From assembly GCA_029717555.1 (NCBI GenBank), contig JAMDHS010000028.1:124001-188000 (forward strand): a stretch of DNA of 64,000 nt. The letters run 5' to 3'. This DNA comes from Peribolospora baueri. Lineage: Eukaryota. A model generated the notes under the pieces. That model was not told the origin of the DNA and did not search any database. It saw nothing but the letters and a program-made list of their open reading frames with translations. How positions within the stretch are numbered: the first letter of the stretch is position 1; each line of letters starts with the position of its first letter. This document shows positions 8,923 through 13,038 of this stretch, one piece after another. The translations under genes were made by a program, and so were the position numbers.

Positions 8923-9888
8923 CCTATCTCGCCACTAGGAATCGAACAATCAGGGGGCGCACAATGAAGAGAGAGAGGGCGAGATGGGATGGAGGGGCGG
9001 AAGGAGGCGAGTTTATTTGTAGATGGGACGGTGGCCTGCCGGTCCGGATGTAGGTACATAAGCGAACGACTGCGGGAGGTCGAGCCGACGGCCGCACCGG
9101 AGTCGGTTGCGGGGATTGTTTTGACGCCGTCGGAGAGCGTAGGACGGGGTAGAGAGGGAGGAGAGTGGAGCCGTAAGGAGCTCCGACGAGCGACGTAGGT
9201 CTGCGCCAAAGAGGTGGGCGACCCGACCGGGTCTGGTTTAACGCCCCCTGTCGCTCCCGTCCTCGGACCGCTCGACGACACTCCAGACGGTACAAAACAG
9301 TGGTGGTGGTGGCCGCTCCGAGGACGGTTCAGGAACGCGCCCGTCGTCACGTGGCGTATTGGCTCGCTCTCAGGTTCCGACGGCTCCACAGCCAAGTCGG
9401 GCGAGGGAGGCCCACCGACGGATCCATCGAGCCATGTTCTATCCGGATCGGCTCGCTCGGTACTGTCAAGGTACACACGCGTTTCCAGTCAGGTATTCTG
9501 AGACATGCACCACGCCCTCAGCAACTGCACCCTTCAACTGAGAGTGAGCCAAGGCTCTCAGGCTGTCGCCTTGTCGCTTGCGGCGGATGAAGACGTCGCA
9601 AGATCAGCGGCCGGTCTTCGCCTTTTGCCGGTCGACCGCAATCGGCGTTGCTTCGGCTTCTCAACAAGGTAGTGGCATCGTGGTTCAATAATGTTACAGT
9701 ATATACAGTTAACCCTGTCTACAAGCATACAAGTTGTCTTGCCCGAGGGCTATGCAGTATGCGAGAGGGTGACCACACAGAGGGGTCTATGCATATTTGC
9801 CGCAGTCCTTGCCACAGTCGATAGCGCCCATCAAGACAGGAATTCCAAGCTAAGCTGTAGAGTATGTACTCGTCAGACACAACCATGT

Positions 9889-10255
9889 TCAAGAAGAAGC
9901 GTGTGCAGAAAAGAATTGTTGAAGATCGGTTTGTTTACGCTGCCTCGTTGACATGTTCTCTGAAAGTGCGACTGAGTTGAGTGACATACTGCTGCATCTT
10001 GAGCCCACTTCTCCGTGCGTGGCTTCATGAAAATTGCTTCGTGGACGTAGCGCAACTGGCCTACGATGTTTTCTGATTTATGGTGTTCTTCTTGAAGCAA
10101 GACCACCTCACAGACGCTCCCTCCTCAGTGTCGCAACCAGCTCTCTGAAGGTCAATGAACTCCTCTCTCGTGAGAGACTCCGTTCCCATGTTGGACTCGT
10201 GCACCTCTTGTTCGTCTCGAGGAACAGCGGGGTTCAATAAGAATCCAATGCTCAT
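9889..10255 (-). pseudogene. C-terminal remnant of a pogo/CENP-B-like transposase (frameshifted)
   Basis: Joined frames give MSIGFLLNP...TREEFIDL...LLQEEHHKSENIVGQLRYVHEAIF...RQRKQTDLQQFFSAHASS*. The terminal QTDLQQFF (9910-9933) is a perfect QxxLxxFF PIP box, typical of pogo/Tigger transposase C-termini, and it sits next to the 3' TIR. Confidence 0.7.
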
Positions 10256-10367
10256 CCTTCTTGCTTCAAGAAGAACACCATAAATCGGAAAACATCGTGC
10301 ACAAGCTGCGCTACATCCACGAAGCAATTTTCATAAAGCCGGGCGCGGATAAGTGGCTCAAGATGCA
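9993..10367. repeat. Imperfect inverted duplication (~108-bp arms at 9993-10100 and 10261-10367; 160-bp spacer)
   Basis: Both arms read TTGCTTCAAGAAGAACACCATAAATC.GAAAACATCGT...GAAGCAATTTTCAT.AAGCC...AAGATGCA on opposite strands, with about 12 substitutions and 1 indel by hand count. Confidence 0.92.
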
Positions 10368-10540
10368 ACCATTAGAGAACATGAGCTGCTCCTCGGCGGG
10401 TACGTCCAATAAGTCGGATTATCTTGCGAGCTTGCACTTTAATCAGCTCCTCACTGAAAACGGCACTCGAGAAAGACCGTCGTTTATCCAGTAGACGAGC
10501 GCCGCTTCTAGCTCCGGATGCTTGAGCACGTCTTGGCGCT

Positions 10541-10940
10541 TTCCGTGCGGGCAGGCGCCGGCGAGACGGAGGGTTCAGGGCGAGAGCTTTCGCCTCTGCT
10601 TCGCGTGCTGCGCTGGCATGAAAAGGTGAAGGGGTATGCGGTCGGCGACGTGATCAGGCTGGTGGAAGCAGTGCGCACGGACGGAAGCGAGCCCGTTTTG
10701 GACAAGCTCAAGGTGGAAGTGGCCAAGACCAGGCTGAAATACTTGGCCACTTCCACGGCCACTTCCACTTTGAGCTTGTCCAAGACGGGCTCGCTTCCGT
10801 CCGTGCGCACTGCTGCCACCAGCCTGATCACGTCGCCGACCGCATACCCCTTCACCTTTTCATGCCAGCGCAGCACGCGAAGCAGAGGCGAAAGCTCTCG
10901 CCCTGAACCCTCCGTCTCGCCGGCGCCTACCCGCACGGAA
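10541..10940. repeat. Near-perfect fold-back palindrome: arms 10541-10727 and 10742-10940, 14-nt loop
   Basis: The arms are reverse complements with 4 substitutions and a 12-bp tandem duplication (GGCCACTTCCAC) in the right arm. This explains the mirror-image ORFs in the track. Confidence 0.98.
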
Positions 10941-11799
10941 CGGGCCGCCGCCTCCTCTTCCTCGGCAGCCACTTGCGCCACAAACGTGTCGAACATGGTC
11001 GACGTCGTCGGCGGCGGCGGCCCGTCGTCGCTGCTGCTGCTGCTGCTGCTGGGCAGGATGACCTCGAAAAAGAAGCACGCAAGTAGAAAGTTTGCATTTG
11101 GCAAGGACGATGGAGGTGCTTTCGCTCGCCATGTTGCGCATGCATTTTTCCATAGTGTCGGCGCATGACCACGAGACTGGAGCAGCAATACCCGCAGCTG
11201 GCCATCGTGCAGGCAAAACCGTTGTGCACTTGGAGGCCGCTGATGGCGATCGGATGAAGGGCATGGGAAAAGGCAGGGATGTCGGGCAAAGCTTGCGCAT
11301 GTGGCCGATGGTGCCGAACGAGCTCTTGGTAAAAAGCCTTTGGGCGCGAGAGTTTATGGCGACAATTGAAGTGACTTGACAGCTCGTTCGTCCGCACGCC
11401 TGCCTTGCAACCCGAGCAGATGAAAAGCTGGTAGAGCGGGTGATAGCGACAACCGATGCTGTCCAAAGACGAGACGAGAGCGACGTCCCAGTCGGCCGTC
11501 GTTGGTCTCGTCGGAGGAGGAGGAGGAGAGGTGGGCATGACCGACGACGACGACGGCGGGGGGTCCAGTTGGGCTTCAAGCGAGGGAGAGAGGGCGCCCC
11601 AATCCAAGGAATCGAACGACGGCGGTGGCGATGGCGAGACCGTCCTCATCTCGGCGTCGTCGTCCACCTCCTGCTGAGAAGCCACAGGGGAGAGATCGAG
11701 ATAGCGTTGACCCTGATCGTGCCGTACAGCTTCCTCCACCTTGAGATGCTCGATTGAGTCACCTAGACAATGAAATGCATCGTCAGTCTCCCACCGCAT
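10728..11799 (-). pseudogene. DUF3505 (OrsD-like) double C2H2 Zn-finger gene fragment, N-terminus of the telomere-linked RecQ helicase type; frameshifted and truncated
   Basis: GCRYHPLYQLFICSGCKAGV...SHFNCRH and PIAISGLQVHNGFACTMASCGYCCSSLVVMRRHYGKMH...CQMQTFY, then after a frameshift near 11080 FFEV...SPLLRVLRW. These match my recollection of DUF3505 proteins. The gene ends at the palindrome loop. Confidence 0.7.
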
Positions 11800-12354
11800 G
11801 CTTATCCTGCAGCAATGCGTTGCACATTAGGAAAGCCTGGATTGGCCTGTAGGAAAGCAGGCGAAGAGAAGTACGGACCGTCTTTGACTGATTGCCGTCG
11901 CCGTGCTTGGGATCACGAAGATAGCGGGGAGCTGAGGTCCAGCACGTGTTAACGCGAGGGAGATCTCTCTGGTTTCCTTCTTCGGAGCCGGGCGAAAGAG
12001 GACCGTATATATACACGAGACTCCGTGAGACGTAAGAGTAAACCAATGGGATTCAACGAGAGACAGCCACAGCGAATATGTTCTGTTGGGAGAGGGTAGT
12101 CGTCGGAGTTAGGGGGGATTGCAACGCAAACCACCTCGTCCGAGTCGATCGTCCCCGATCACTGTGTCTACCGTTGCCTATCGTTACCTCGCTAGCTCGC
12201 GTCGTCGGCCCTGTTCATTTGCGAGCTTCAGTCGTTCTGCATTGACGAGGTGTCGCAAGATATGACGGCTTGTTCAATTTGCTGTTTGATCCTTTCATGG
12301 TGAGTGTACTCCGGTTTCTCCGACTGTTCCTCTAGAGGTGCGAAGAAAAGTGGC

Positions 12355-12519
12355 TCAGCTGTCTTTTTGGGCCGCCTGTTGCGTTGTTCCAGGTCGGTAG
12401 ACTATGTCCGCGTCGAAATGCTCAATCTCGTTGATGAACCTTCTGATCCTCTTGCCCACTTCTTTTTGACTCCTCAGATACTTGAGCAATTCGTGGTCCG
12501 TTCGTACGAGAATAGGTGA
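12355..12519 (-). pseudogene. Ty3/gypsy retrotransposon RNase H fragment
   Basis: My translation (too short for the ORF track): SPILVRTDHELLKYLRSQKEVGKRIRRFINEIEHFDADIVYRPGTTQQAA, matching the TDH.sL.yl...R..R.....fd..I.YrpG..n..AD motif of Ty3/gypsy RNase H. Confidence 0.85.
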
Positions 12520-13038
12520 GGTCCAGTTCGATTTTCCCGCGTCGAAAAGGAAGGGAAAGAAGCCACCGAAGAAGTGCTCTCACTGCCGCAAGATGGGTCA
12601 CCTGGTAGCTCCGAAGCCTGCGTGGTAGGGACGGCACCGGTATCAGTGCTATGCAATATGCGGTAGGTTTAGTATGCATATAGACCGGTATTTTGGCTGG
12701 GAGCAGTCAACTTTTGGCTGGGGAACAAGCGGGAAAGGGAGATCGCTATGTACTATGTGAAGGTATGCTTATGGACCCGTATGCTAACAGACAGGGTCGA
12801 CTGTAGCGCGCTCGCACAAGAGACAGTGGGAGCCTGGGGAACGATCGATAATATTCAGATATGTGGTTTCGAAAGCGCCGGCAATGAACAGGATGCTCGC
12901 GTCCACACGTGCGAGAGCGCCAAGTCAGGTGGATATCCACGCGCGACCCAAGTCAAGAGTTTCTGCGAGAACGAAAGGCATCTCAGCGACATTGGCCTGG
13001 ACTTGCCCGCATGGACGAGAACAAGAAGACGGGAAGGC

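Follow-up and report, generated by a model that had tools for sequence, protein, structure and literature searches.

Within a 64,000-nucleotide stretch of Peribolospora baueri contig JAMDHS010000028.1 (the window), an element of ~3.1 kb was analysed; positions are those of the window, and other copies are named by contig (C665, C295, etc.) of the genome assembly that was searched (22.7 Mb, 668 contigs). The element is best explained as a pogo/Tc5 derivative of the Pack-TIR type (TIR, terminal inverted repeat), dead and non-autonomous, that was put together by repeated template switching while breaks or gaps were repaired and that is now drifting (probability about 0.72). Its two hairpins look like repair scars of the sort found in other long copies of the family rather than a purpose-built silencer. 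Any double-stranded RNA made from them would be incidental, and the assembly retains no intact target for it.

The structure would fit the following order of events. The DDE core of the transposase gene would have been deleted and an inverted copy of the C-terminus left in its place (hairpin 1). A piece of a DUF3505-helicase-type gene would then have been copied between the helix-turn-helix (HTH) parts, the synthesis folding back at a stem-loop to give hairpin 2. This composite would have been moved at least once by transposase supplied in trans, yielding the present copy and C665. In the present copy only, a gypsy remnant would have replaced the 5′ region, and this copy would not have moved since a time before organisms A and B diverged.

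A pogo/Tc5 shell with captured cargo

The pogo-like TIR shell with TA on both sides, described in an earlier note on this DNA, was confirmed. The two 25-bp TIRs were identical at 20 of 25 positions (Table 1), and three of the five mismatches corresponded to a left/right asymmetry typical of the whole family. Elements of the pogo/Tigger group have TIRs starting with CAGT and TA target duplications. When the TIR ends were sought across the genome, 77 family ends were obtained against 1 for the control. At least 105 family matches to the element were present (40 of 62 candidates scored). Most family copies were MITEs (miniature inverted-repeat transposable elements) of 600–720 bp with TA at both ends, and 24 of the 36 mapped family entries had TA at both mapped ends. 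Seven long copies contained transposase sequence: this element, C665, C88, C44, C71, C295 and a C110 fragment. HTH_Tnp_Tc5 was scored in C71 (E 1.5e-11) and DDE_1 in C295, and both aligned with this element at ~87–93% DNA identity. The TA target-site duplication, the dispersed short TIRs and, in other copies, a CENP-B-type HTH (C71) and DDE_1 (C295) are those of the pogo/Tc5 family. Like other pogo/Tc5 (Tigger-like) derivatives and MITEs, the family had TA duplications, CAGT-starting 25-bp TIRs, HTH_Tnp_Tc5/DDE_1 remnants in some members and many short internal-deletion copies; unlike them, this copy lacked the DDE core and carried foreign cargo, and an intact parent was not found.

The transposase gene lay on the minus strand and read from the 5′ exons through the HTH and the inverted arm replacing the DDE core to the C-terminus, so that N-terminal HTH exons and the C-terminus survived. 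Of these the earlier note had recognised the C-terminus, correctly, but had missed the 5′ exons (11704–11924) and the Tc5 HTH (10368–10541). The inverted copy of part of the C-terminus, which it had also reported, is hairpin 1 (97 of 110 columns identical). C295 held the only DDE_1 remnant, itself broken; no intact transposase was found in the assembly, including 13 further TIR loci, and the longest stop-free frame among five long copies was 195 amino acids. A 563-amino-acid HTH_Tnp_Tc5 frame on C220 was rejected as parent because it lacked a DDE match and read as a host protein. This host gene (L073:2423–5112) had a Tc5/CENP-B HTH and a long disordered body.

A piece of an OrsD/DUF3505 gene (Pfam E 1.2e-11 at 11140–11445) sat between the two HTH parts and therefore inside the transposase gene. 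It replaced 16 bp of transposase (joint 10541–11704), and neither a target duplication nor an element end was present; the left junction showed short, imperfect microhomology. These junctions look like template-switch capture. A library search with HMMER gave 141 matches to DUF3505 homologues, and two of the 12 scanned were proteins with OrsD, DEAD and Helicase_C; an earlier homologue search for longer DUF3505 proteins gave 96 candidates, none significant. The OrsD, DEAD and Helicase_C architecture fits subtelomeric helicase repeats, as far as the available parts of PMC5576322 and bioRxiv 721753 describe them. In DTX-chim_G199 of Colletotrichum higginsianum (PMC5576322, accessible part), DDE-1/HTH transposase parts are likewise combined with DUF3505 and a helicase; that chimera is 11–18 kb, subtelomeric and multicopy, with telomere repeats, whereas here a 1-kb DUF3505 fragment lay in a 3-kb interstitial relic. 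No second OrsD domain was found in the genome, the single match being this locus, and other pieces of the DUF3505 gene were found only in C665; no parental donor locus of this cargo was found in the assembly. Because the genome had no other OrsD domain, a DUF3505 “family” to be silenced is not shown. Accordingly, pogo and gypsy stood among the three transposon classes claimed earlier, but DUF3505 is not shown to be a transposon class.

The gypsy RNase H fragment claimed earlier was also found (RT_RNaseH in an open reading frame at 12355–12579, E 0.0015, below the curated cut-off). The remnant was larger than described and included most of a long terminal repeat (LTR) and 3′ internal sequence, in the order RNase H fragment, 3′ internal sequence, LTR without its outer end. 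It stood in place of the pogo 5′ region and was seen in no other family copy. The hallmarks of Ty3/gypsy insertion that were looked for, an intact LTR end and a target duplication, were absent, and filler was present at the junction. No source was found for this filler (11925–11945) or for the piece at 12521–12622. The latter, with its zinc-knuckle-like motif, was oriented opposite to the gypsy remnant.

A passive graveyard of nested insertions had been offered as the plain alternative. It is partly right, and it fails at the DUF3505 junctions, which lack a target duplication and resemble template switching. In its strict form, true nested insertion of DUF3505-bearing and gypsy elements by their own enzymes followed by deletion erosion, it is very improbable. 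In its favour, the gypsy remnant keeps a collinear order and is seen in no other copy, and deletions are frequent in the family (4.5 per MITE copy); against it, the DUF3505 piece has no element end and cost 16 bp of transposase, a DUF3505 element family is absent from the assembly, and the fold-backs are left unexplained by insertion alone. Among deletions of at least 5 bp in 21 MITEs, 18 of 41 had microhomology of at least 2 bp (~6.6 expected).

C665 had hairpin 1 and both transposase/DUF3505 junctions in common with this element, inside its own family ends. It had one arm of hairpin 2 only, was without zinc finger or gypsy piece, carried a fold-back of its own and had lost 52 bp covering part of a hairpin 1 arm. 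Since the junctions and hairpin 1 are shared, the pogo–DUF3505 composite would have existed once and moved; it was probably mobilised in trans once, in agreement with the Pack-type unit proposed earlier. Ectopic conversion between two resident copies is a possible alternative origin of the shared junctions. The composite is multicopy (this copy and C665); its three-part form, which includes gypsy, occurs once. The DUF3505 arm of C665 matched 10610–10724; its first 72 bases were identical, after which it was ~18% divergent and continued past the apex. Judged by eye, many third codon positions in part of it were unlike those of the two arms here; a possible switch to a second, now lost DUF3505 donor or paralog is suggested for the divergent part.

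A Pack-TIR is expected to enclose foreign DNA that has no target duplication of its own, as this element does. In the available part of PMC8277862, Pack-TIRs are described in animals, the main text making no mention of fungi, with captured sequence in TIRs, breakpoint microhomology, and gap filling or FoSTeST. Captured cargo in TIRs, short microhomology, loss of few transposon bases and further transposition of the composite are shared with those elements; here, unlike there, the cargo is folded back, there are two cargos, and no donor gene turned up. A literature search made in a partial library listed no fungal Pack-pogo with a hairpin. Taken singly the locus is transposon debris, yet it gives a clear case of Pack-TIR capture in a fungus, one whose sister copy can be traced.

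The element occupied the same site in organism B, a relative in which 76 of 2294 flank bases differed (~3% in the left flank). This comparison used contigs of DNA runs from one study (minimum likeness 88); all four runs compared carried the insertion, and B contigs crossed both TIRs, indicating that the insertion is old. The DUF3505 piece differed from organism B at 36 of ~860 bases and by a deletion, a divergence at least as great as that of the flanks. Run X4 had no cover at 11014–11264, and 10610–10666 was uncovered in both B runs; such contig holes prove nothing. A joint of 11536 to 12538 in B contigs (23-letter side) was judged untrustworthy.

Table 1. Features of the element and its immediate borders
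Feature	Position	Strand	Remarks
TA-CAG-TA motif	9695–9701		footprint-like
TA target-site duplication, left	9704–9705		
25-bp TIR, element 3′ end	9706–9730	-	
3′ subterminal region	9731–9966	-	common to family MITEs
Broken transposase C-terminal coding region	9967–10257	-	collinear with C295 downstream of its DDE_1 remnant
Hairpin 1, original arm (transposase C-terminus)	9993–10102		
Hairpin 1, inverted copy	10259–10367		occupies site of deleted DDE core; partly common to C665
Broken Tc5/CENP-B-type HTH	10368–10541	-	stops and frameshifts; ~90% identical to C71
Hairpin 2, left arm (inverted DUF3505-gene segment)	10541–10724	+	transposase junction common to C665
Hairpin 2, apex	10725–10756		short stem, 14-nt loop, 12-bp tandem duplication on right side
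Captured, frameshifted OrsD/DUF3505 gene fragment	10723–11703	-	zinc finger 11140–11445; hairpin 2 right arm 10757–10940
Transposase 5′ exon, intron, second exon	11704–11924	-	intron ~11763–11825 (damaged donor); 90% identical to C44, 93% to C295
Short filler between transposase and LTR remnant	11925–11945		
Ty3/gypsy LTR remnant	11946–12128	-	outer end lost; dispersed ~220-bp TG...CA repeat family, 9 other places
Gypsy 3′ internal sequence	12129–12272	-	collinear with relic on C132
Gypsy RNase H fragment	12388–12520	-	86% over 22 amino acids to relic on C461
Single-copy piece, CxxCxxxxH knuckle-like motif	12521–12622	+	Pfam zf-C2H2_10 E 0.0059, below cut-off; self-match only
5′ subterminal region and 25-bp TIR	12623–12803	-	TIR at 12779–12803
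TA target-site duplication, right	12804–12805		

Fold-backs in this element and in other relics

The arms of hairpin 2 were identical at 180 of 184 positions. Comparable inverted repeats (arms of at least 40 bp) were present in none of 40 arbitrarily chosen 10-kb background stretches of the genome (400 kb) and nowhere else in the window, so the two hairpins are not due to chance. Contigs of DNA runs X1 and X2 crossed the hairpin 2 apex without a difference, and these runs may be the assembly's source sample. An earlier description of this palindrome as a folded DUF3505 zinc-finger fragment held for the gene but not for the finger, which lies outside the arms: hairpin 2 is a conserved segment following the finger in the same gene. 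The stem-loop and tandem duplication at its apex would fit fold-back priming.

Hairpin 1 is decaying, with no sign of constraint. Perfectly paired 21-mers numbered 8 of 90, and its mismatches fell equally (4/4/4) into G-U on the plus strand, G-U on the minus strand and neither, without compensatory bias. Private changes were found at 10 of 218 arm sites, against 24 of 981 in the other pogo parts. Its sequence was found in six broken copies and in no MITE; that of hairpin 2 matched C665 only.

Four of the seven long pogo-family copies had fold-backs, amounting to 7 distinct arm pairs over ~12 kb; none was seen among 30 MITE-like copies, and three of eight gypsy LTR loci also had inverted arms. 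C295 (48169–50919; L041:380–3130) had two 5′ ends and three inverted arm pairs, with long inverted transposase arms. C71 (L021:1015–2779) contained ~490 bp of non-transposon DNA, partly folded back, that matched C328 (L110:440–1400) beside a family end; it appears to be a second Pack-type capture, independent of this copy. Ordinary DNA of this genome lacks long hairpins and its transposon relics often have them, a wider pattern that matters more than the single locus. It raises the question whether inverted-duplication derivatives, which in maize have been shown to start silencing, are a general death route of DNA transposon families or a by-product of break repair.

Silencing as an alternative

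The earlier note had proposed the locus as a candidate transposon-silencing locus. A dedicated role of this kind was not borne out: fold-backs are common in long copies and gypsy relics, hairpin 1 is unconstrained, intact targets were not found, and MITEs lack the hairpin-1 sequence. A selected, currently working hairpin small interfering RNA locus with several targets is accordingly hardly credible. Two tandem hairpins, one of them near perfect, an insertion common to organisms A and B, and a DUF3505 piece kept in run X3 would suit it; the decay of hairpin 1 without G-U or compensatory bias, the lack of intact targets, the frequency of fold-backs in relics of this genome, and a DUF3505 piece no less diverged from organism B than the flanks all speak against it.

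A past role has somewhat more in its favour. An Argonaute gene (Piwi) was found on C175 and a Dicer-like gene on C110 (Dicer_dimer E 4.4e-18; exons for helicase and RNase III were also present); an RNase III match on C641 was rejected as Dicer, reading as a short single-domain protein. A search of the genome for an RNA-dependent RNA polymerase, made without a positive control, found none. Beside the right TIR a short-chain dehydrogenase (SDR) gene on the minus strand (stop ~13039, ~235 bp away) pointed into the element and lay upstream in its sense direction, from which read-through transcription into the element is conceivable.

On this basis, accidental fold-backs could have been read through into hairpin RNA that helped to silence an active pogo family (and DUF3505 donors), and could have decayed since the targets became extinct. 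We consider this unlikely. Hairpin 1 is transposase coding sequence, the Dicer-like, Argonaute and SDR genes are in place, and the assembly holds no intact transposase of the pogo family. There is also a maize precedent: in the available parts of PMC3440606 and bioRxiv 2020.01.07.897926, Mu killer and Ac/Ds composite insertions are transcribed and silence active elements, and they share with this locus an inverted transposase duplication beside a possible read-through gene. However, the arms of those loci reach much greater lengths or take in the termini (a hairpin RNA of ~4 kb is proposed for Mu killer in the part seen), compared with arms of 110 and 184 bp here, one pair decayed, with no intact target found; the likeness to Mu killer is one of form only. 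C295 is structurally closer to Mu killer and suits a killer role better; moreover, the element's own 5′ region was replaced by gypsy DNA, and the family shows no CpG decay. A Cryptococcus Harbinger hairpin silencer considered as a further precedent was not borne out by the available part of PMC6643885.

C>T changes in the MITE family amounted to 2.6% at CG and 2.9–3.5% elsewhere, indicating that a CpG bias was absent; in Microbotryum, the accessible part of PMC4469406 reports such a bias. A change at the left TIR resembling repeat-induced point mutation (TTAA vs TCGA) was dropped, the family norm being TCAA and CpG bias being absent.

A broader proposal is that coding-bearing relics are systematically folded back, with no CpG/RIP signature, the fold-backs being self-generated killer alleles that feed Dicer and Argonaute, become preferentially fixed and extinguish their families. 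This we hold to be quite improbable. If true, the host would extinguish its transposons chiefly through fold-back scarring, and the locus described here would be a mobile killer with two targets.

Several observations nevertheless weigh against assembly by template switching followed by drift. It is in relics bearing coding sequence that fold-backs cluster, with none in MITEs, a distribution that selection for silencing alleles would give as well. The counts of private changes in hairpin 1 and the other pogo parts are small. In hairpin 2, 103 of 164 21-mers were perfectly paired (~-435 kcal/mol), and its arms differed by 2%, the same region differing from organism B at 16 of 241 bases; that the arms resemble each other more than the region resembles B calls for hairpin 2 to be younger or for conversion between its arms. 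The genome has Dicer-like and Argonaute genes, and the neighbouring gene points into the element. Extinct targets are also expected after a successful silencer, and parents, intact or collapsed, may be missing from an assembly of 668 contigs.

Surroundings and further observations

The host genome would be that of a basidiomycete fungus, judging from intron-rich genes and domain content. The flanking gene opposite the SDR gene was an SPX-RING gene, reading away from the element. The TA-CAG-TA motif, which lies 2 bp beyond the left TA, was seen in the flanks of 1 of 36 copies, and its background was 2 per 200 kb. We take it to resemble an excision footprint of the Tc1/mariner type; it may record a local hop of the element.

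Fold-back arms of ~60, 296 and 143 bp were noted in the gypsy relics L052, L054:404–1443 and L058:1093–1373, respectively. On C561 (L109:685–1232), a 207-bp inverted repeat, 96% identical and purine/pyrimidine-skewed, lay ~135 bp beyond a truncated family 3′ end.

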